From contig JBEWZL010000030.1 of assembly GCA_045837725.1 (NCBI GenBank), positions 1 to 64,000 on the forward strand: 64,000 nt of DNA, given 5' to 3'. The position numbers and the translations under genes were made by a program. This stretch comes from Vermamoeba vermiformis (Eukaryota). Under the pieces are notes generated by a model, which did no database searches, had not been told where the DNA came from, and saw only the letters and a list, made by a program, of their open reading frames with translations. The stretch's first letter is position 1. The number at the start of each line of letters is the position of its first letter. Below are positions 1,676 to 50,700 of the stretch, piece after piece.

Positions 1676-1710
1676 ACATTAGCATTGAGCATTTACACCT
1701 TGAAGCTAAC

Positions 1711-2030
1711 ATCCCGATTGACTGCGGATCGGGGTGACCCAGGCCCTTCCTGATTCGCTGCGGATCGGGGTGGATCCAGACCCTTCCTGATTCGCTGCGG
1801 ATCGGGGTGGACCCAGGCCCTTCCTGATTCGCTGCGGATCGGGGTGACCCAGGCCCTTCCTGATTCGCTGCGGATCGGGGTGGATCCAGACCCTTCCTGA
1901 TTCGCTGCAGATCGGGTTGGACCCAGGCCCTTCCTGATTCGCCGCGGATCGGGATGGACCCAGCCCCTTCCTGATTCGCCGCGGATCGGGATGGACCAGA
2001 CCCTTCCTGATTCGCCGCGGATCGGGGTGA
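1711..2030. repeat. Tandem minisatellite C (36-37 bp, ~9 copies)
   Basis: Unit cccttcctgattcgctgcggatcggggtggatccaga with an internal imperfect hairpin CCTGATTCG-nnn-CGGATCGGG. Dispersed degenerate copies extend to ~2350. Confidence 0.92.
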
Positions 2031-2559
2031 AAATGAAATTTCGCCCGAAATTTCAGGGCACGTGGCTTACCTTGCCATATTTGGGCACTGCGACTTGTTG
2101 TGCTCTGTGTTATGAAGTAATTAAAAATGACTAAGATTCGGTTTCTCGATTCTCTCAAAATTGCCTCCCTGCCTCCCTTCTAAAGGAGGCTTTTTATTTT
2201 TCGCCTCGCCTGGATTCGAACCCGTGCCTTTCAAGGTTTTACAGGAGTTGGCACTATTTCCTGATTCGGACTCTGTCAGGAGCCCAGTGGGCCTGGTATC
2301 CTGATTCGCAACGGATCGGGATTTTTCTTCCTGATTGGTGCCCAATCGGGATGTTTTCAAATTTTGACCAAAGCCATTACCTTTTTTCTGCGTTTTTCAT
2401 GAAATTTACTGGCTTTTTATTTTTACATTGTTTTTGCTGGAAAATACAAGTTTTTAAATATTGCCCTTTTTCGACAAAAACACCTATTCCTATATCCCTA
2501 ACTCCTAGGAAACAGTAATATGTCAGTATTAAATCACCTGTAAACTTGAATTAGAATCT

Positions 2560-3400
2560 CTTCTTGAGTCAGGAAAGGATTATCTCACTGAAGCTTTAAT
2601 CTTTCCCCTCTCTGACTCAGGAAGGGATTTTCCCTCTCTGATTCAGGAAGGGATGCTTAATTTTGAATAACACTTAAAATTTACTGTTCCCTTCCCTATC
2701 TGCAAATATTATACTTACAACATCTTTGCAGATTTTCCTTTTACTGGGTAGCACCTGGGCTGTTTTCTTGTTGTCAAGCGTGGTGTTGTGTTTGTGGGGG
2801 TGAGTAAAATGAAATTTTTTTGTTTCCAAACAGTACTATTGAATTGCCTCCCTTTTTATTTAGGGAGGATATTTTTTCCCTCCCTGACTCAGAGAGGGAA
2901 AGTTTTCTGCAAATTTTAATGTTGCTTCTTGAGTTGAAAATCCTTTACTGCTAAGCAGTTTGTCTTGGGGAATTGGGGGGGAAACCCCCCCACACCCCCC
3001 AGCAACATTTTTTTCCTTTCATAGCCCAGGATGTTTTGATCTGCGCTGCATTTCCTGATAAAATTTGTCCAAATTCGAGTCTCTAGAACATTTTCAATGA
3101 TTGGAGACATTGGGGGGGAAACCCCCCCACACCCCCCAGCAGCATTTTTTCTCATTTTTTCTTTGCTTTTGCCTTGCCGAAACCCCTTCCATCTCTGATT
3201 TTGTCCTGTTTTCGCTGGATTTCCTGCTGTTTTTGTCTGATTTTCCCTCAATTTTGGAATTTTTGCCTCAATTTCCTTCATTTTTCCCTTTGTTCTTTCA
3301 AAATCCCTTCCTTGCTCAGGCAGGGATTGCCTAGTAGGAAGGGATTTTCATCACTCCCTGTCTTTCATATTGAATTCCCTTCTTGAGCCAAAGAAGGATT
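2560..3400. repeat. Dispersed palindromic repeat D (CYTGANTCAGG core with CCCT/AGGG flanks)
   Basis: cttgagtcaggaaagg (2563), ctctgactcaggaaggg (2610), ctctgattcaggaaggg (2636), ccctgactcagagaggg (2883), ccttgctcaggcaggg (3310), cttgagccaaag (3383). Confidence 0.6.
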
Positions 3401-3435
3401 GTCTTTCGAAAACAGCTTTCACAACCCTAACCCCG

Positions 3436-3915
3436 ATGTTTTTTGATATTTCTCATATAAATCGCAACGTCAGAGCCAAGACGCGAGTTCTAGATCGAGC
3501 ACGAAGTAGCTCGCTCGATGACCAGTGCTGAATAAAGAGTAAGTAGTTTATTTCTTTTATCTCATTATTGTTTAATATTCTAACGCATCTTATTTAGGTT
3601 TTACAAATTCACGGTGACTGATCACGAACGCGATCTTCCCGCGTTGGCAGATCTATTACATTGACAATAGTGGATCGGTAAGTATTCATAAGCGTTAGAT
3701 ATTGATCAATACTAACCTGTTATATGCTTAGAAATAGATAACGCAAGCCTACACAAAAATAAACGCGCTCTGAAAGTCCATGCTCGATCCGCTTCAACTT
3801 TTGATTGAGCACATGGATCACACCAGCGGTAAGTTCAATGCGTTTAAAAGAACTAATATAAGCCAATACTAACACTAATTCTTTATTTAGGACTTAGACG
3901 GACGAGGTCATTGTG
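3436..3915 (+). pseudogene. Spliced degenerate gene with three in-frame TGA codons
   Basis: ATG 3436; introns 3539-3597, 3678-3737 and 3829-3890 (gtaagt...ctaac...ag) keep one frame; TGA at 3529, 3615 and 3771. Confidence 0.5.
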
Positions 3916-4444
3916 AGTTAGTTTCTGCTCCACGGCAATTCGTATGTTTTGAACCAGCGGATTTCGAGGGCTGAACAAACCAGCGTCTTCGGATACCGGC
4001 TCCTTCTCTTCCTTTGGCTTCTCCGTATTAACGTTCGTGGATCTTCTACTGGCTTCCTCAGACAGATCGGCAACAGGATTTTATCTACCTCTGCTAATGT
4101 GCGTTAGATTACCGTTCATGATTTATTTTCATCCCGAGCGAGTCTCGCCTGGGATGACTAACTGAAAGTTAAGTTTATTCACTTTAGGATGAATGATTAT
4201 TTTAATATCATCCTTAACGAGTCTCGCTCGGGATGAATTCTTTAAAAAATCTATGGTAAACATAAATCAATTTCAACATAGAGATTGTGTAATCCATCCC
4301 AGGCAAGTCTCGCTCGGGATGACTTCGGAAATAAATTTCGATAAAATTTTACTTACCGTGAGCTTATCCCGGGGGTCCTTGCTGTAGGCGTCGAGGAGCT
4401 TCGGGTTTGGCGACCAGAGGGGTACCTTTGGAATTATTGCTCAT
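3885..4444 (-). pseudogene. Probable degenerate two-exon gene whose intron holds three repeat-E palindromes
   Basis: ATG 4444 MSNNSKGTPLVAKPEAPRRLQQGPPG-TAA-AH, then gtaagt donor at 4356; ctaac/ag acceptor near 4090; coding-like sequence follows (TEKPKEEKEPVSED) but the frame is not cleanly recoverable. Confidence 0.35.
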
Positions 4445-4987
4445 TTTTGATATAAAAAAAACAAAGTTACGGTGTTGAGTTGTGGTGGTGTGTGTGGTAA
4501 GTGAAAGTAAAATGAAAAAAAAAACCGAACAGAAATTTTATAGATTTTCCTCCCTTGCTAATTTTGGGAGGCAATTTCAAATTCTGGCGTAAAATTACAG
4601 TTTTCGCACCCCGTACCTTTCAATTTCCATCCCGAGCGAGTCTCGCTTGGGATGAGAGGAGCAGCTGGGTTTTAAGGATTGAATTGTTGAAAATTCTATT
4701 ATTATGCACCTTAAGTTATTGGATTCTATCCCAAGCGAGTCTCGCCAGGGATGCAACTAATAATTTATGAGTCAGGTTAGAGGATTAATTAATTTCTATC
4801 CCAGACGAGTCTCGCTTGGGATGTCTCGCATTATTTTTAAATACCAACAAGAACGGTTATGGTTCATCCTTAGCGAGTCTCGCTCAGGATGAAAAAATGT
4901 TGAATGGATGACTTATCAGGGGGCTCCGCCCCCTGCACCCCCCTTCTTTTTTCTTTTTCCCATCCTGAGCGAGTCTCGCTCGGGATC
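4130..4987 (+). repeat. Array of eight 27-bp palindromes (CATCCCGAGCGAG-T-CTCGCTCGGGATG) with unique spacers
   Basis: Copies start at 4130, 4209, 4295, 4628, 4727, 4797, 4865 and 4961. Spacers are 52, 59, 306, 72, 43, 41 and 69 bp. Confidence 0.92.
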
Positions 4988-5263
4988 AATAATGGACCCT
5001 CCCGTATTTAGTATAATATCAATGTTTATTAGTGATAGGAATTGTATCCCTAATGCCTAACATCAGTCATTTAGGTCATATTAAATTCTCTTTTTTGTTT
5101 ACCCTTTTATAATACAACAAAGAAAAAAATCAGTAACACTGTCCATTTGACAAATGTTTTGTAACAAATAGCAATTGTTTATTTATTATTGTGTAGTAAT
5201 AAAAATAGAAGATTATTAATTTCATTTTGGTGCTGTTGTCGATTCGATGATTCTCACATATTA

Positions 5264-5760
5264 TTATTTATTTGTATTATTGTTATTTTGGTTAGCACTG
5301 GTTAACAAGTTGGTTATGATTGGTGAAGGAGACACAAAAGAAGCCCCATGAGTGGGTGCCATTGTTTGCAATTTGATATGGCATTTGGGTAACTTGATTT
5401 GCCGGTGAGGTATCCGTACTTGCAGAGCAGGCATTATTATCTTGGGAGACACTGGTGGAGGTTTCTTTGTTGGTTTCTTCATTGATCAATTGGACTTGGA
5501 CTCTGTACTGACCTCTTCAATTTCAAATGCTTCTGTTTTTGCCTTCTTTTTGTTCAGTTTACACTTTGGTTTCAAAAATTGTTGTGCTTTTGGCTTGATG
5601 GTGTCAGGCTCGAGTTTCCTCTTGTTTGAAATAGCACTATACCAGCTAAAGGCAAGCAAAGGCAGGCTTTCCTGTTATTGTTTGTGTTGCAGAGCAAGTT
5701 TGACGTCTGAACTCTGGTTAAGGTAAATTTGTTTGGGGTGGCACATGCTGCAAGTTTTTT
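5264..5760 (-). pseudogene. CpG-depleted coding-like remnant
   Basis: Fragments such as KRKLEPDTIKPKAQQFLKPKCKLNKKKAKTEAFEIEEV and ETNKETSTSVSQDNN broken by stops and frameshifts; very few CpG. Confidence 0.3.
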
Positions 5761-5808
5761 TGTACAGAATTTATGGCACAGATCAACTGTTCAGTTGAAA
5801 CACAGGAA

Positions 5809-10664
<4,856 letters not shown>

Positions 10665-24486: not shown

Positions 24487-27198
24487 TTAGTTGTCGGAGC
24501 TAACTGAGTCCGAATCCTTCTTTGCAGGCGAGCGAGATCGTGATCGGGAACGAGACACTGATCTAGAGGCCGATCTGGAGCGGGGTGAGGGAGATCTAGA
24601 GCGGGATTTGGAAGAAGGGGAGCGCGATCTGGAGCGAGATTTAGAACGGGACTTAGGTGAGGGAGAGCGAGAGCGAGATCTAGAGCGAGATCGGGACTTG
24701 GGGGAAGGGGATCTTGAACGAGAACGAGAACGGGACTTGGGTGAAGGTGATCGTGAACGGCGCTTCTCGTCGCTGGAGACAGACTTGTTGTCCTCTTGGT
24801 GAGCCTCTTCTTCGTGCTTGGGCTCCTCGTGGTGCTCTTCGTGGTGAGCTTCTTCGTGTTTGTGCTCTTCATGGTGCTCGTGATGCTCCTCATGGTGCTC
24901 GTGGTGCTCCTCGTGCTTGGGTTCTTCGTGGTGTTCATGGTGCTCCTCGTGGTGCTCGTGGTGTTCCTCGTGCTTGGGCTCTTCGTGATGCTCCTCATGA
25001 TGGTGGTCCTCATGGTGCTCGTGGTGCTCCTCATGCTTGTGGTCTTCATGGTGCTCGTGATGTTCCTCGTGCTTGTGTTCCTCGTGGTGAGTCTCGTGGT
25101 GTTCATCATGCTTGGGGGCTTCATGATGTTCCTCGTGCTTGTGAACCTCAGCTTGCTTCTCCTCGCGCAACTTCTTGGCCAATTGTTCACGCTCGGCTTT
25201 AGCTTTCTCTTCGCGCTCTTGAGCCTCCTGTTCGGCCTTTTGACGCTCTTCTCTCAACTGCTTCTCGCGCTTTTCAGCTTCGAGTCTCTCTTGCTCGCGC
25301 TTCTCGGCAAATTGTTCAGCCAACGACTTCTTGTTGCCACTGTCTGAAGACTTTTGCGAAGTGTGAGTGGAGGTGGTAGTGCTGGTGCTGGTTTGTTGCT
25401 TGGCAGCCTTGGCCTTGGCTTCACGTTCAGCGCGTTCACGCTCCTCGCGTTCCTTAAGTTCCTAATAGAAGAGTTTATTAATATCGACTACGGCCATACC
25501 TTATCGCGTATGATCATACCTGTTCGCGCTTCTCGCGTTCTTCACGGATTTGCTTTTCCTTGCGCTCTTGTTCCAACTTCTCTTCGCGTTGCTTCTCGGC
25601 AAATCGCTCAGCCAATGACTTGTTGGCACCAGCTAAATAAAAACATTGTCAGAAATTTCCAGATCGAGATCTGATCGAGAAACAACTTACATTCACCGCG
25701 GGGAGTGGTGCTAGTAACGACCTTGTTGGCCTCAGCAACCTTGTTTTCAAAGGCCTTCAATCTATCAGCTAACTTGCCGCCAGACTTAACCTCAGCTTCA
25801 GCTACAAAAATGAATTTTTGAGTGGATTTGCCTTACGCACGCGTTCGATCTGCAATGTTTACTCACCAGTGCGGGGGCTAACAACAGTATTGCTGCTAGA
25901 AGCACCTGATTCGAACTTCTTCTTGGCATCGGCAAAGCCAGCAAGACGAGGCTTTTCGGTGGTAGTAGATGAGCTCGAAACAGCTATTAAAATAAATCAG
26001 CAAATAGCTCAATAATATTCTCATTGATGTCATATACTTACTGGTAGTAGTAGTATTATCGCGAGGAGAAGTAGTAGGCTTGTGAGCGACATGACCGTCA
26101 GTGGCATGAGATGCAGAAGGGCCACCCTTTTGATGAGTAAATTGTTGTTGTTGCTTCTCACGACCGAAACCTAATAACGTATTATTATCATTAAATTATT
26201 ATTTCGTTTGGAGAGAGTGAGATTCGGATTCGCGAGCGAGAAATTTCGATTGACTGCCGTTGATGTCAAATTGATCTACCTGGTTTACCTAGCATATATA
26301 TGTTTATTTGTGTGCTTACCTTCGTCGTAGTTGCCCTTCAATCTGAATAATTGAGTAAAATGAGGCTTGCAATAAACTTGGCCTTGAAGAGAGGCGAAGT
26401 TGCCTAACTTAAGCATTGCATTGCAGTGAGCGCATCTGAAGCAGGTCTATATAGTATACAATTAATATTATGAGTAAACTAGCCAACCAAAATCGAACAC
26501 AAATATCTTTTTTCAATTTGAATCTGCTCGCGATGGCGATTATTTTTGTCATTAAAATGTATATTATACTCTTGTTATGTATATTAACATTCGACTATTA
26601 ATTTTATGCCTTGTATTCAAGATCCAACAAAATCGCAACGGTCAAATTCGTATCTTTTTAACTTTTAAAAAATCCTACACGTAATAAACTATGATTTTAC
26701 CGAAATTAGCTTGTATATAATCAATTAAATGTGTCTTAAATTAAAATCACGCGATTTCTATTTAAATTTACAAAAATAACGAAGATTATTAAATTGTTCA
26801 GATCTGCCACAATAACAAGTAAGTTTGCCGTTATTTTTTACCTTGTGCATCAATGACTTATCATCAACAGAGATCTTTTCTGTAGGATAGACAGTTTTGC
26901 CGCACTTAGCGCACTTGTCTGAGGGACGGGCGATATTCATCTAGACAACAAAACTCTTATTAGACATTTCTCGCGAAAAAATTAACGAAATAATAGTGCA
27001 GTTGGTCAAAATAATTCATGGTATTGATAAAATACAGTTAGCAATTTCGTTTTCTCGGCCCGCAGTATTTTTTCAAACTCGGATGCGAATTTTAACGTTG
27101 GGACCAAAGCAATAGAAAATCGGGGCTAATAGCGCTCTTGTTTGTGTATCAAACGTTATATAACCTACCTTAATGGGTGTAGCTGCAACTTCCGACAT
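24487..27198 (-). CDS. LIM-domain protein (EPLIN/LIMD2-type) with coiled coil, His/Glu repeat and RS-rich tail
   Basis: [13 protein letters not shown]...[11 protein letters not shown]...[24 protein letters not shown] coiled coil; HEEHHE repeats; (RS)nPSPK repeats. Confidence 0.88.
24520..25145 (-). repeat. Coding tandem repeats: [10 protein letters not shown](PK) units and [11 protein letters not shown] units
   Basis: Directly visible in ORF 24487..25323. Confidence 0.9.
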
Positions 27199-47700: not shown

Positions 47701-50700
47701 TCCTTCATCTTGGGACCGAACAACGAGTTGTCATTGTGCTGCGTGTCGTCGAGAATAACAACGAATTCACTGGCACCAGCATCGTCGGCATTTTGAATCA
47801 TCTCCGTCAATATTCTGGATTGAGAACGAGTGTGAAGGGCCTCAGAGATCTTGCCGAGTTTTTTGCTCACACTTGCATCGCCATCCTGGTCCTTGATTGG
47901 GTCAATCGCATTCGTGATTACCACATGACTGCAAGGTCTGATGCCGAGAGCCTTTGCAATTTGATTCGGAATGGACGGATGAATGATTTGGTGATTCTCG
48001 GGTGTCTTGGCTTCGAGTGACTTAACCCACGGCATGTCGTCGTAAACGAGCTTTGTAGGTGACACAAGATGTCCACTTTGACTGGGCAAGACCAAACCAT
48101 TCGGAATATCTTTGGCTGACTCGATACTTTCAGATAACAAGGTCACAACTGAAAGGCTGAGTTTGAGTTCGCGCTCGTTAAGTGGCGTCCTGTTGTTCGC
48201 TCTGGTGGCCAATAAGTCTTTCAAAATGCCAACCAAGTCTTCAGGTTCGACGTAATTCTTGAAGTCGAGAGTGCTGAATAGGTTGGGATATTTCTTCAAG
48301 TCTCTTGGGCACGAGAATATGAACGGAGACAAGTCGATGGACAATTCTCGAACAATTTGAGTCTTCTTCGCAAAATAAGGAGCGACCCAAATCCACTTGC
48401 AATCTTCATCAAGGAGCTCATCGAAGGCGTTCTTTGTGATCTGCCCAGTGCTGAGTGCGTTGTTCAAAAACTCGTTGACACGGTCGCTAATCGTTGAAAT
48501 GAACGATGAAAGTTTCGAACCACTCTCGCCTTCAATGTTGAAAGCAACAGCTGTGCTCGCTAATTTCTTGGTGTGACTCACAACGACTTCAACGTTCGGA
48601 GGGTTGACCCAGTCAAATGTCTTGATGAAGTAGGGGTTCTTCGGGTGATAGTCGAGGATGGCACGACTGCCGCAGCTGAGCAGGGCATCACGTTGCAAAC
48701 AAGTCACGTTCGGGGCAACAAGCTGAGGCTCTCCAACAAACCAGAAGGCTTGATTGAACGCAGAGAGCACGTCATTTGCTACCACATTGAGTGAGTTGGC
48801 CAGGTAGTGTGTTGGTGAAATGCTTGGCAACCATTCCGTCGCTGACAACTCCTTGGTGAACACATCAAAGTCCTCCGCTGATAATTCAGTTTCCAGCATG
48901 CTGAAGTTACGATCCAAGTAAGCGCACAAGCTCTTCGCTCGCAACAGTGCTGCTTGCTTGTCTTGTTTGTAGTATGAAGGCACTGACTTGATTCTGTCGA
49001 TGAAATCTTTCACGCCAAGCTGCTTCTTCAGGCCAAGCTTTCTTAAGCTCGCAAGCATGGCAGGATCTTTGTACGGTCCAGTAGGGAACACAGGTTCGAA
49101 CGTGAACATGTGATTCATGTCTGTTTCTTCGGGGTCAAACAAATAACGAGGCGGACAAAGTCTTCCGTTGCTGTCTGGAATAAATTCCAAGTTGCTGAAG
49201 AAATCCACAATGTCACCAGCAGTGTCTTCCTTGATAATGGCATTCAAGTCTTCGAGCACATAAATCATCACTTGGTCTCGGTGTTCTTGAGTAAATGTGC
49301 TCAGTTTCTCGGTCAAATAAGACTTGTAGAACTCTGGGCGCTTCAGCACTGATATTTCCAAGAACTCCAACAGGTATTTGTCGTGTGGCGAGTCACGCTT
49401 GAGCAAGTACTCCGAAGTGATGTCGTGCGGAATGTTTTCGGGTGGGCACGCGTACTGAGTCTTGTCAATAGCTGCAAATCGATGTTCTTTCGAGAAGGTC
49501 TCGAAGATTGGAAGTTGCTTGATGTTGTCTCGTTGAGCTGCAGAGTTGAGCACCTTGTTTTCAAACCACTCATACTTGGAGAAGAATCGCCTGAGATTGT
49601 GAAATGTTAATGTCAACTAGCGCAAAGGTTTAATGGACTTACTTGAGAGCAATCTTTTCATCGGCAGACAAGACCGCAAATAGCTCCGTAGGTGATTTGT
49701 TCGCGTTCTTGATGCACTGAGTCAACGCGTTCAAAACACCAGCTGCGTCACCAGCAGGGAAGATGTTGCTCAAGATTTTGTTATTGAGTGTGATTTCCGA
49801 TTCATCGACGACATAACAGTGAAGCTTGGCCAAGGCGGTGATGACGTCATTGGACAAACTTGAGTGCGATAGCAAGCACGGCGTGTTAGGGTGTAGCGAG
49901 CACAAGCGTTGACCCATGCACGGTACTAGAGGCCATTGTTCGAAATCAGTCTCGGGCTTGTCGTTGCCGTTCATCGTAAGGAATGTCAAGTACTGCCAGA
50001 AACGCTCGAGCCAATCTTTTGACACGACATTCTGATTCCACTCAACGAGATACGAGTTCTTCCACTCTTTTGGAAGCACGTGCTCGAACAATTGGCTGAC
50101 AGTCTTGGGATCCACAATAGTCACATTGACCACTTCTCGCAGCTCACTTGACTTGAGCTCGGCGTTGATAGTTGGCGACACGATGTTACTGTCAACGAAC
50201 ATTGACAAGTGATTCGGAAACAACGACATTTCTAAATCAGTTGCGAGGTAAATATGAGCCTTGTTCCTGCTCTCAAACTTCGAGAAACTTTTGTCTGCCA
50301 TTGGCACCAGGTTGATTCCCTACTTTTGTGTCAGCTTCAAACCAAATTAGTTAACTTTAAACTAACGTACCTGAAGGTCTTCGAAGTTTCTATCGGCCAA
50401 GCAGTATTCGAGAAGATGCACAACTAAACTTCGATTCTTTTGATACATGGCGGGCACGGTGGTCCAATTAGTCTTCAAGATTTTTCGAACCAATGAAGGA
50501 CTAACAAATTTCACGGTGTTGCCGAGAGCGTGACTGAATGCTTCGAACAAACCAGGAGTGACTTCTACTACGGGAATGTTCTCGTCAATCAGTGCTTGAA
50601 AGACGGTCTTGAATACTGCAGGCGGGACAGCAGTGCTATGCACATCTTCATTTCTATATACAAATACGGCCTCTGAAGCGGAAACCCATTGTCCGCCGTT

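Follow-up and report, generated by a model that had tools for sequence, protein, structure and literature searches.

The 64-kb window analysed here (positions 1 to 64,000 of contig JBEWZL010000030.1 of Vermamoeba vermiformis) carries eight 27-bp palindromes within 858 nt around a TATA/initiator-like cassette, next to a truncated coding fragment. The neighbouring ABCC gene is interrupted by 14 spliceosomal introns (ungapped tblastn plus inspection) and its best named relatives are eukaryotic; the nearest matches are a JGI protein (94% identity) and EukProt and Arcella sequences (63-66%). Among the 29 ORF translations of the window, Pfam returned only sacsin, Kelch and APH matches as well as a weak EcoEI_R_C match below the cut-off. 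No nuclease, recombinase or DNA-binding family was matched in this ORF-level scan, in which short exons could be missed, and no HUH, Rep-like, RAYT or TIR transposase was present among the same ORFs. The features at the array are as follows.

3919-4119, minus strand: coding fragment matching the first 67 residues (1-67) of the protein P0121 at 95.5% identity (tblastn)
4094-4356, minus strand: candidate intron 1, 263 nt, with donor GTAAGT, branch-like TCTAAC and acceptor TTAG, holding copies 1-3
4130-4156, plus strand: palindrome copy 1, 27 bp, within candidate intron 1 of the minus-strand gene
4209-4235, plus strand: palindrome copy 2, 27 bp, within candidate intron 1
4295-4321, plus strand: palindrome copy 3, 27 bp, within candidate intron 1
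4357-4444, minus strand: candidate exon 1, ATG at 4444-4442, followed by the GTAAGT donor at 4356
4470-4620, minus strand: promoter-like cassette, putative promoter
4628-4654, plus strand: palindrome copy 4, the best preserved (one mismatch to the consensus) and the nearest upstream of the cassette
4727-4753, plus strand: palindrome copy 5, 27 bp
4797-4823, plus strand: palindrome copy 6, 27 bp
4865-4891, plus strand: palindrome copy 7, 27 bp
4961-4987, plus strand: palindrome copy 8, 27 bp

All eight 27-nt copies described in the original prediction were recovered at these positions, each having arms of 13 nt around a T on the plus strand. A search with the consensus (at most three mismatches) listed nine matches compared with none in each of 100 shuffles; the nine comprise six plus-strand copies, three of which appear again on the minus strand, and the copies at 4727 and 4797 lie beyond the three-mismatch threshold. 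The 11-nt core (at most one mismatch) matched all eight copies and one stray site at 49388. Neither scan revealed a further 27-mer in the 64-kb window, so that the remaining 59 kb, including the 14 introns of the ABC gene, are free of them, and BLAST of 2001-5600 against the window gave palindrome-driven matches only. The flanks of the eight copies contain no direct repeats or target-site duplications and have in common a pyrimidine at -1 and, in most cases, an A at +1; at the array edges, no terminal inverted repeats were found apart from the palindromes themselves. Twelve single metagenome matches to an 18-base pattern (11 in loci of GC 0.58-0.68, one in GC 0.41) were read as chance, none of them matching the full 27-mer, and neither of two single matches to a 17-base pattern in viral contigs fits a stricter pattern. 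In the literature, the 11-nt core occurred only in an unrelated context and three 15-nt strings were not found.

The eight copies are on average 0.836 identical (pairwise range 0.74-0.96). They depart from the consensus 23 times, by 19 transitions and four transversions, and all of these differences are confined to positions 1, 6-9, 11, 20-22 and 27, while positions 2-5, 10, 12-19 and 23-26 are invariant in 8/8 copies and form three blocks whose centres lie approximately 10-11 bp apart, or about one helical turn. CpG positions 6, 7, 11, 21 and 22 take 14 of the differences, and the inner CpGs (10-11 and 17-18) were changed only once; the proposal that variants mostly affect CpG positions is thus correct for the outer CpGs and fails for the inner ones. 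Only one cell was changed on both sides of the dyad, where shuffles give 2.0 +/- 1.2, and covariation within the family scores 0.126 versus 0.123 in shuffles. Because this arm variation is non-compensatory, what has been conserved is something other than the full hairpin. Across the three palindrome families of the locus (see below), dyad symmetry is kept through two-sided changes in 10 of 13 pairs, a score reached by 0/500 shuffles.

The spacers measure 52, 59, 306, 72, 43, 41 and 69 nt, with a GC content of 0.21-0.48. Together with the outer flanks, they show a mean local alignment score of 13.6 versus 13.1 +/- 0.47 in shuffles (15% of 200 as high), and the best pair scores 17 versus 19.7 +/- 2.3. 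Their description as AT-rich and unrelated therefore agrees with our data, and the possibility named alongside it, that the spacers are diverged tandem units, was tested without any mutual likeness being found. Since the palindromes are 84% alike and the spacers have no detectable likeness, the sites have been preserved or renewed where the spacers have not. The reported 3+5 split around the 306-nt gap also stands, this gap holding both the ATG (4444-4442, minus strand) and the cassette, which recurs twice nearby.

Read on the minus strand, the cassette consists of a CCTCCC...GGGAGG dyad (4549-4571), a TATAAAA box (4542-4536), an initiator-like TCATTTT whose A lies at 4513, and a leader rich in CA, with TATAAAA at -29 relative to TCATTTT. 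Five palindromes lie 115-475 nt upstream of TCATTTT and three within candidate intron 1. The candidate exon 1 has a stop as assembled and is open if one unknown letter is placed at 4418, where one contig of the X1 set has an extra letter. From these sequence features we infer a promoter, exon 1 and intron 1. Three RNA runs under the same species label yielded 0, 1 and 0 reads on 3300-5900, too few to judge expression by. A strict intron scan proposed one minus-strand candidate around copy 1 (4162-4094) and none around the other seven copies, and the plus strand at 3380-4260, read as a spliced mRNA, contains no ORF.

Two sister modules were found in the same 5 kb, with the following features.

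2095-2260, minus strand: sister cassette 1, with a candidate ATG exon at 2078-2071 that is in frame, across a 409-nt intron, with an ORF ending at 1082
1712-2352, plus strand: sister palindrome family F3, TCCTGATTCGC.GCGGATCGGGR, nine copies of which form a 37-bp tandem array inside the 409-nt intron
2780-2870, minus strand: sister cassette 2
2558-3398, plus strand: sister palindrome family F4, TCCCTCTCTGA.TCAGGAAGGGA and variants

F3-related elements are also present upstream of cassette 1 (2259, 2299 and 2329), and F4 lies on both sides of cassette 2 (2558, 2602, 2631, 2877, 3304 and 3376). The cassette thus occurs three times within 5 kb, each time with a palindrome family of its own to either side, and the three modules are arranged in tandem and co-oriented. 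A TCCY-N15-RGGA frame is common to all palindrome families; its 18 exact matches in the 64-kb window all (18/18) fall at 1932-4985, where chance would give 1.95 +/- 1.34 in the window and 0/100 shuffles reach 18. Palindrome-bearing units also form tandem arrays, one of 37 bp (8.4 copies, 92% identity, 1722-2029) and one of 32 bp (589-867). The candidate first introns of 263 and 409 nt are 3-8 times as long as the ABC-gene introns (48-95 nt, measured by hand on 14 introns), and this excess length consists of palindrome arrays. Module 1 has an in-frame TAG after WYIEPDQ, and no coding body was found in module 2. No relatives of the module-1 ORF were detected, apart from a weak resemblance to P0121 (motif G.WYIEP, pairwise E 0.039; tblastn 25.6% identity, E 0.036, read through a stop), which tentatively suggests that the two may be paralogous.

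The gene flanked by the 27-mers corresponds to P0121, a 307-aa orphan protein that was matched in a full HMMER scan (E 3.9e-24, 96% identity), a similarity by which this gene is judged to be real at the protein level. The copy in the window is decayed: it is frameshifted relative to another copy, its codon 13 is an in-frame TAA and it is truncated, the similarity stopping abruptly at 3919. P0121 has no relatives in Pfam, PDB, Atlas or sequence searches and matches no transposase, recombinase or nuclease family, and its AlphaFold model (pLDDT 35) is useless for the fold. Its predicted C-terminal residues are a translated F6-type palindrome, which implies that a palindrome follows the gene in an intact copy as well. 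Given that the gene copy in the window is broken, the 27-mer sites described here may be relics.

Additional copies were suggested by the X1 contigs, which may come from the very sample that the window was assembled from. The listed pieces cover 4021-4144, 4553-4715 and 4961-5086 of the array; the bins at 4779-4952 have zero depth. X1 depth is uneven even over the ABC gene. X1 contigs depart from the window at 3920 and 5086, unit boundaries that are defined by loose contig ends only, and these departures suggest further copies of the same 1.2-kb unit. In addition, 38 of 98 aligned X1 records are only 95-99% alike. One X1 contig carries the 27-mer with different flanks, indicating at least one further genomic context; these flanks are intron-like (approximately 65 nt), with GTAAGT 30 nt before the palindrome and CAG at most 8 nt after it, and this copy may therefore be intronic. 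The membership of the 27-mer array in a set of three sibling arrays, the multi-copy orphan-gene fragment that the 27-mer array flanks and the occurrence of the 27-mer elsewhere in the genome are observations that go beyond the original prediction.

The reading that we prefer, at a little under an even chance, is that the eight 27-mers are dyad-symmetric sites to which a protein binds, arrayed in the region that controls a gene module present in several copies. What was observed directly comprises the sites, the way in which they are conserved and placed, the sibling families and the gene fragment. With eight copies in 858 nt around a putative promoter, invariant blocks and unrelated spacers, the array has the make-up of a homotypic cluster of transcription-factor sites, in which at least three copies of one motif lie within approximately 1 kb of a promoter and are better conserved than the intervening sequence. 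Among the functions originally listed, that of iterated operator sites is the one favoured by the invariant blocks with helical phasing, the uncompensated decay and the position upstream of the cassette and inside candidate intron 1, even if any operator activity is still putative. A dimeric, sequence-specific DNA-binding protein would dock on the 27-mers and touch three successive major grooves on one helix face, at ATCC, CGAGTCTCGC and GGAT. The module would belong to a lineage-specific, multi-copy gene and would read, on the minus strand, as five sites, the TATA/initiator-like cassette, a short exon 1, a long intron 1 with three sites and the coding body. The bound protein would control the promoter through activation, repression or shielding from read-through of the upstream ABC-transporter gene. 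In this scheme, the binding of a protein, the role of the cassette as a promoter, intron 1 and any effect on regulation are all putative. The sister modules, with different palindromes built on TCCY-N15-RGGA, suggest one binding geometry with diversified cores. Several points weigh against binding sites: a hairpin or cruciform role explains the cross-family symmetry as well as co-diversified dimer sites do, the presence of the 27-mer in another genomic context also fits a mobile element, the 29 ORF translations yielded no DNA-binding, nuclease or recombinase family, P0121 has no recognisable relatives, candidate exon 1 is open only with one extra letter, and the gene copy beside these sites is broken.

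Such a mobile origin is unlikely overall, although several observations agree with it. The module would be an unclassified mobile or selfishly duplicating element, its palindromes serving as subterminal or internal sites for an element-encoded protein, possibly P0121, in the manner of the subterminal repeats bound by transposases or of Rep-iteron pairs, and the three families representing three subfamilies. None of the three modules in the window looks intact or complete, further copies are suggested by the X1 departures and the 38 imperfect records, the intact P0121 copy would also have a palindrome downstream and each cassette has its own family to either side; however, the array edges have neither additional terminal inverted repeats nor target-site duplications, P0121 resembles no transposase, recombinase or nuclease, and tandem co-oriented modules also fit local duplication. 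We give only a small chance to the 27-mers being autonomous hairpin elements (REP-, MITE- or introner-like) that piled up by local hopping in AT-rich non-coding DNA or introns. Unique spacers, the cross-family retention of dyad symmetry, the folding of each copy as single-stranded DNA (-4.3 to -11.1 kcal/mol, z -2.0 to -6.0) and at least one X1 copy in a different, intron-like context would be expected of them, whereas the lack of target-site duplications, the unmixed families (each restricted to its own cassette), the absence of other copies from the remaining 59 kb and the lack of a HUH or other hairpin-acting enzyme among the window ORFs would not; moreover, it is the centre (loop and closing pairs) that is most conserved, and the stem decays uncompensated.

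It is very unlikely that the palindromes act as RNA, neighbours within the intron or within an upstream or antisense transcript forming duplexes of approximately 27 bp that give rise to small RNAs or affect splicing. The 921-nt array does fold far more stably than its shuffles (-327.6 kcal/mol, z -13.6 on the plus strand; -293.3 kcal/mol, z -10.8 on the minus strand), neighbouring copies pair 1:2, 3:4, 5:6 and 7:8, and weak miRNA-precursor-like matches span adjacent copies, but such folds are expected from any self-complementary repeat. Rfam gave no match at gathering thresholds, those at E up to 1 being far below the cut-offs, and a tRNA search returned nothing meaningful. Wobble and mismatch counts are strand-balanced in F6 (6 and 6), as for decay of double-stranded DNA, compensation within the family is lacking, and 5/8 copies lie upstream of the putative start site. 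An old minisatellite in neutral decay, of which the palindromes would be the slowest-decaying, functionless remnant, is hardly probable either: clear tandem palindrome-bearing arrays (37-bp and 32-bp units) adjoin and the differences are mostly transitions, partly at CpG, but neutral decay cannot produce 84%-alike 27-mers beside unrelated spacers of 41-72 nt, the unit lengths vary from 68 to 99 nt, and CpG decay has affected the outer positions but hardly the inner ones.

The locus was originally introduced as having a CRISPR-like architecture, with the caveat that it should not be called CRISPR; the caveat was correct, and the likeness does not extend beyond the surface. As in a CRISPR array, fixed-length, partly palindromic repeats alternate with unique sequence. 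Unlike in such an array, the repeats are only 84% alike (minimum pairwise 0.74), the spacers range from 41 to 306 nt and one of them comprises a putative promoter and exon, no cas-like genes were found in the 64 kb (ORF-level Pfam scan of 29 ORFs), and the host is a eukaryote with spliceosomal introns. Taken together, these differences contradict a CRISPR-like adaptive array, for which the surface pattern is the one point in favour and to which we assign next to no probability. A false lead is thereby removed: nothing at this locus points to a eukaryotic CRISPR-like system.

Parallels are also offered by eukaryotic systems. The yeast GAL1-GAL10 control region contains four 17-bp Gal4 sites of the form CGG-N11-CCG. 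Both there and here, one dyad-symmetric site is present in several irregularly spaced copies beside a core promoter, with outer half-sites conserved at a set distance and unrelated sequence between sites; the sites here differ in being 27 bp long with a third, central conserved block, in lying on both sides of the start, including intron 1, and in showing three cores on one frame at three putative promoters. The gypsy insulator consists of 12 Su(Hw) sites with AT-rich spacers in approximately 340 bp. It resembles the present locus in its repeated binding boxes of approximately 26 bp with AT-rich, unrelated spacers and in that a multi-copy element carries the array between promoter and coding body, but Su(Hw) sites are non-palindromic, retroelement features are missing here and an insulator role would be putative.

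In bacteria, REP/BIME sequences are paired with RAYT genes, and plasmid iterons with Rep. Like these, the palindromes described here are short and imperfect, combine a conserved motif at the ends with a core that differs between families, and occur on both sides of "their" gene; unlike them, they reside in a eukaryote with spliceosomal introns, and no HUH or Rep-like protein was found in the window ORFs. The 27-mer forms one cluster in 64 kb and is seen in at least one other genomic context in the X1 contigs; it differs from REP/BIME- or MITE-like mobile palindromes in having neither target-site duplications nor a cognate transposase among the 29 ORFs. Introner elements are likewise a partial match, as most 27-mer copies have no splice sites of their own. 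In Amoebophrya introners, inverted repeats of 8-20 nt pair both intron ends and many splice sites are non-canonical (PMC7789003). The common feature is a repeated, hairpin-capable sequence inside protist introns, one extra-window copy being apparently in a short intron, and the difference is that the palindrome here is internal to introns with canonical GTAAGT...YAG ends.

A slim chance is given to the idea that the modules are self-addressed, each member of a rapidly diversifying orphan family (P0121-like) encoding a protein that, as a dimer, recognises the palindromes on either side of the gene it comes from; the TCCY-N15-RGGA frame would then fix the geometry, and the 15-bp core would be the module-specific address. 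If true, such modules would be the equivalent in eukaryotes of Rep-iteron or RAYT-REP pairs, or DNA transposons of a new class whose subterminal arrays are palindromic, and a new class of element would also be at hand if the module proved to be mobile or the orphan protein to be the binder. If the 27-mers are arrays of protein-binding sites in a control region, the locus would provide a compact example of a fixed site frame whose core diversifies between neighbouring promoters. It would also link, in a poorly studied eukaryote, a family of orphan genes with a DNA motif that lends itself to testing.

The array of 27-nt palindromes at 4130-4987 (family F6) is a real and statistically solid feature. 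Reading of 3700-5500, together with a repeat finder, places eight copies in one register, starting at 4130, 4209, 4295, 4628, 4727, 4797, 4865 and 4961, and in every copy the arms are 13 nt long and the central base on the plus strand is T, as the original prediction described. With at most three mismatches to the consensus, nine matches are listed (six plus-strand copies, three of these again on the minus strand), versus none in each of 100 dinucleotide-preserving shuffles. The array is unique in the 64 kb, since its 11-nt core matches only the eight copies and one stray site at 49388. The spacers (52, 59, 306, 72, 43, 41 and 69 nt; GC 0.21-0.48) are AT-rich and unrelated, as had been proposed; their mutual likeness is at shuffle level (mean local score 13.6 versus 13.1 ± 0.47; best pair 17 versus 19.7 ± 2.3), which speaks against diverged tandem units, and Tandem Repeats Finder reported no array at this locus. 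Contigs of DNA sequencing run X1, which may be the same sample as the window assembly, span parts of the array, with 4779-4952 uncovered.

Mean pairwise identity among the eight copies is 0.836. All eight agree at positions 2-5 (ATCC), 10 and 12-19 (within CGAGTCTCGC) and 23-26 (GGAT), and the 23 departures from the consensus (19 transitions and four transversions) all fall at positions 1, 6-9, 11, 20-22 and 27. CpG positions take 14 of the 23, in keeping with the earlier statement that variants mostly affect CpGs, but the inner CpGs have changed only once. Arm changes are mutually independent (both sides changed in one cell versus 2.0 ± 1.2 in shuffles; covariation 0.126 versus 0.123), and wobble and mismatch counts are balanced between strands (six and six, counted by hand). 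Because of the invariant blocks, the uncompensated arm changes and this strand balance, the full stem is seen to be decaying, while the centre (the would-be loop) and the outer tetranucleotides are kept. Single-strand folds of the copies range from -4.3 to -11.1 kcal/mol. The centres of the three conserved blocks are about 10-11 bp apart, from which we infer that the blocks share one face of B-DNA. Such a pattern fits a double-stranded DNA site read by a dimer better than a hairpin.

The array is split 3+5 around a 306-nt gap, in which both the ATG exon and the promoter-like cassette of the original prediction were found.

Features of the cassette and candidate exon 1
4549-4571, minus strand: CCTCCC...GGGAGG dyad, first in the 306-nt gap
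4542-4536, minus strand: TATAAAA, after the GGGAGG dyad
4513 (the A), minus strand: TCATTTT, 29 nt past the TATA motif
between TCATTTT and the ATG, minus strand: CA-rich leader, in the 306-nt gap
4444, minus strand: ATG, candidate exon 1 start
4356, minus strand: GTAAGT donor, directly after candidate exon 1

When the minus-strand ORF at 3883-4080 was used for a full HMMER scan, one protein was returned, the orphan P0121 (E 3.9e-24; 307 aa; NCBI source, 4.9-kb contig). In tblastn, window 4119-3919 matches P0121 residues 1-67 at 95.5%; codon 13 is an in-frame TAA where P0121 has Ser, and the likeness ends at 3919. An X1 contig leaves the window exactly there, at 3920, and its loose letters, as we read them, spell out P0121 residues 68-77, which indicates that an intact copy exists elsewhere and that the window copy is truncated. 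As assembled, the exon 1 ATG frame meets a stop ahead of the donor. An X1 contig carries an additional letter at 4418; if an unknown letter is placed there, the frame stays open through 29 codons and joins the P0121 frame in frame over a 263-nt intron (4356-4094) with a branch-like TCTAAC. This candidate join is suggestive only, because chance would put one join in three in frame and the model is drawn from sequence. On this gene model, five palindromes would lie upstream of the putative promoter and three in intron 1; the five also lie between that promoter and the co-oriented ABC gene's 3′ end.

This neighbour, an ABCC transporter gene on the minus strand (CDS end 5809, first match 10323), has a product that aligns in 15 ungapped pieces to a JGI metagenome-derived protein of 1255 aa (94% identity); other named relatives (EukProt transcriptomes, Arcella) reach 63-66%. 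The gaps between pieces, measured by hand, give 14 short introns of 48-95 nt; in most of them the donor is GTAAGT and the branch site is of the CTAAY type, while one has the GC donor GCAAGT. Farther along come sacsin-like, Kelch and APH-like ORFs, and none of the 29 ORF translations scanned matched nuclease, recombinase or transposase families. The host is a eukaryote, probably a protist. Dense nested tandem repeats at 24587-25139 (periods 12-84 nt), within long ORFs of both strands, have the look of low-complexity or repetitive coding sequence.

Two further copies of the cassette lie at about 2095-2260 and 2780-2870, all copies having the GGGAGG dyad, a 33-nt distance to TCATTT and a CA-rich leader. 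In cassette 1, ATGGCAAG is followed by GTAAGC (2078-2065), and an in-frame join over a 409-nt intron leads to an ORF ending at 1082; this intron contains nine 37-bp tandem units, each with one 23-nt dyad (family F3), and three related elements lie upstream (2259, 2299, 2329). Family F4 surrounds cassette 2, downstream (2558, 2602, 2631) and upstream (2877, 3304, 3376). A TCCY-N15-RGGA frame is common to all three families; the window has 18 exact matches to it, none of them outside 1932-4985 (chance 1.95 ± 1.34; none of 100 shuffles reaches 18). TCCC plus GGGA tetranucleotides reach 13.9 per kb in 1700-5000, a fourfold density compared with the 3.4 per kb found elsewhere. When 17 elements of the three families were aligned in register, dyad symmetry was kept despite differing cores (87% of cells paired versus 69.5 ± 2.0 in shuffles), with both-side changes in 10 of the 13 pairs and a covariation score reached by none of 500 shuffles, the eight F6 rows being interrelated and this cross-family covariation resting on about three to five independent cores. 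The module-1 ORF is tentatively a P0121 paralogue, the likeness being weak (motif G.WYIEP, pairwise E 0.039; by tblastn 25.6%, through an in-frame TAG). Both P0121-like frames on the minus strand contain in-frame stops, at 899-1114 (TAG after WYIEPDQ) and 3919-4119 (the codon-13 TAA). We read the stops as pseudogene lesions and not as a variant genetic code, since TAA terminates the ABC gene and the residue of P0121 at the second site is Ser.

Several other repeats occur in this part of the window. A GC-rich array at 1-548 (the first 2 kb are 57% GC) comprises seven or more 21-nt palindromes built as ACCGTCCA-N5-TGGACGCT, shows a higher-order periodicity near 221 nt (repeats 88-90% alike) and extends past the left window edge; two of its plus-strand frames lack stops and the third is stop-free for 418 nt. 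Just beyond the module-1 frame end, 32- and 22-nt tandem repeats (589-867) each carry a GTACAGCGTGCTGTAC-type palindrome. A G7-AAA-C7 hairpin element occurs at 2972-3013 and 3109-3150 (98% identity), with a 62%-alike relative at 4915-4956, which falls within spacer seven of the 27-mers. The segment 3387-3473, probably a high-copy dispersed repeat, has a summed X1 contig depth of 814, compared with 11-108 in other parts; it shows loose ends at 3462 and 3464 and contains one F4-type dyad and a CCCTAACCCC motif. On the plus strand, opposite to the modules, three introns that are textbook cases by this organism's standards (3539-3597, 3678-3731, 3829-3890; GTAAGT, CTAAY branch, YAG, 54-62 nt) yield no ORF when spliced, and could belong to a non-coding transcript or to part of some other gene, located at the point at which the likeness to P0121 stops.

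Copies of the 27-mer also occur outside the window. One X1 contig matches 4130-4159 only, flanked at either end by some 255 letters that differ from the window, the two flanks possibly not from one contig; GTAAGT lies 30 nt upstream and CAG within 8 nt after, so that this copy looks like part of a putative intron of roughly 65 nt. The four residues after the acceptor (DSWA) equal P0121 residues 72-75, too short a match for evidence. The C-terminal residues of the predicted P0121 are the translation of an F6-type palindrome, and palindromes of this family are therefore present downstream of the intact gene too. A further contig tracks 4961-5086 with five differences and then departs, a hint of a repeated unit of about 1.2 kb.

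It is unlikely that the module itself is mobile or selfish and the palindromes its binding sites: broken copies, contig break points and the palindrome downstream of the intact gene agree with this, but terminal repeats, duplications and any known enzyme family are missing. Free-moving hairpin elements, which would account for the unique spacers and the extra-window copy, are more doubtful still, given that each family is faithful to its own cassette, that the centre is conserved and that duplications are lacking. A role as RNA is improbable; although both strands of the array form strong folds in which adjacent copies pair (1:2, 3:4, 5:6 and 7:8), any such repeat would fold likewise, and neither an Rfam family nor covariation lends support. 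Neutral minisatellite decay is slightly less credible again, as it leaves unexplained 84% identity beside spacers without detectable likeness. CRISPR-like immunity fails on every feature tested and can practically be dismissed; the original prediction, despite its CRISPR-like title, likewise stopped short of calling the array CRISPR.

Gal4 sites of GAL1-GAL10 form a homotypic cluster of dyad sites, and the array would work most like clusters of this type; it also resembles the Su(Hw) array of gypsy, in which boxes alternate with AT-rich spacers, and in having family-specific palindromes on the flanks of genes it is reminiscent of REP-RAYT and iteron-Rep pairs. The literature search found the exact core strings in no relevant paper. 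Amoebophrya introners have inverted repeats at intron ends that bring splice sites together (PMC7789003), whereas the 27-mer is internal to its candidate intron.

We tentatively favour, as a plausible reading a little short of probable, the view that the array offers docking sites to a dimeric DNA-binding protein and is part of the control region of a gene module that is lineage-specific and multi-copy, its copy in the window being decayed. The protein would dock repeatedly on the 27-mers, placed in the upstream region and intron 1, and transcription may be activated or repressed, or the sites may act as a roadblock to read-through coming out of the ABC gene. The locus is best filed under a known kind, promoter-proximal arrays of dyad-symmetric, here putative, binding sites; what is unusual is that three neighbouring arrays have a common frame and differing cores and are tied to an orphan multi-copy gene.
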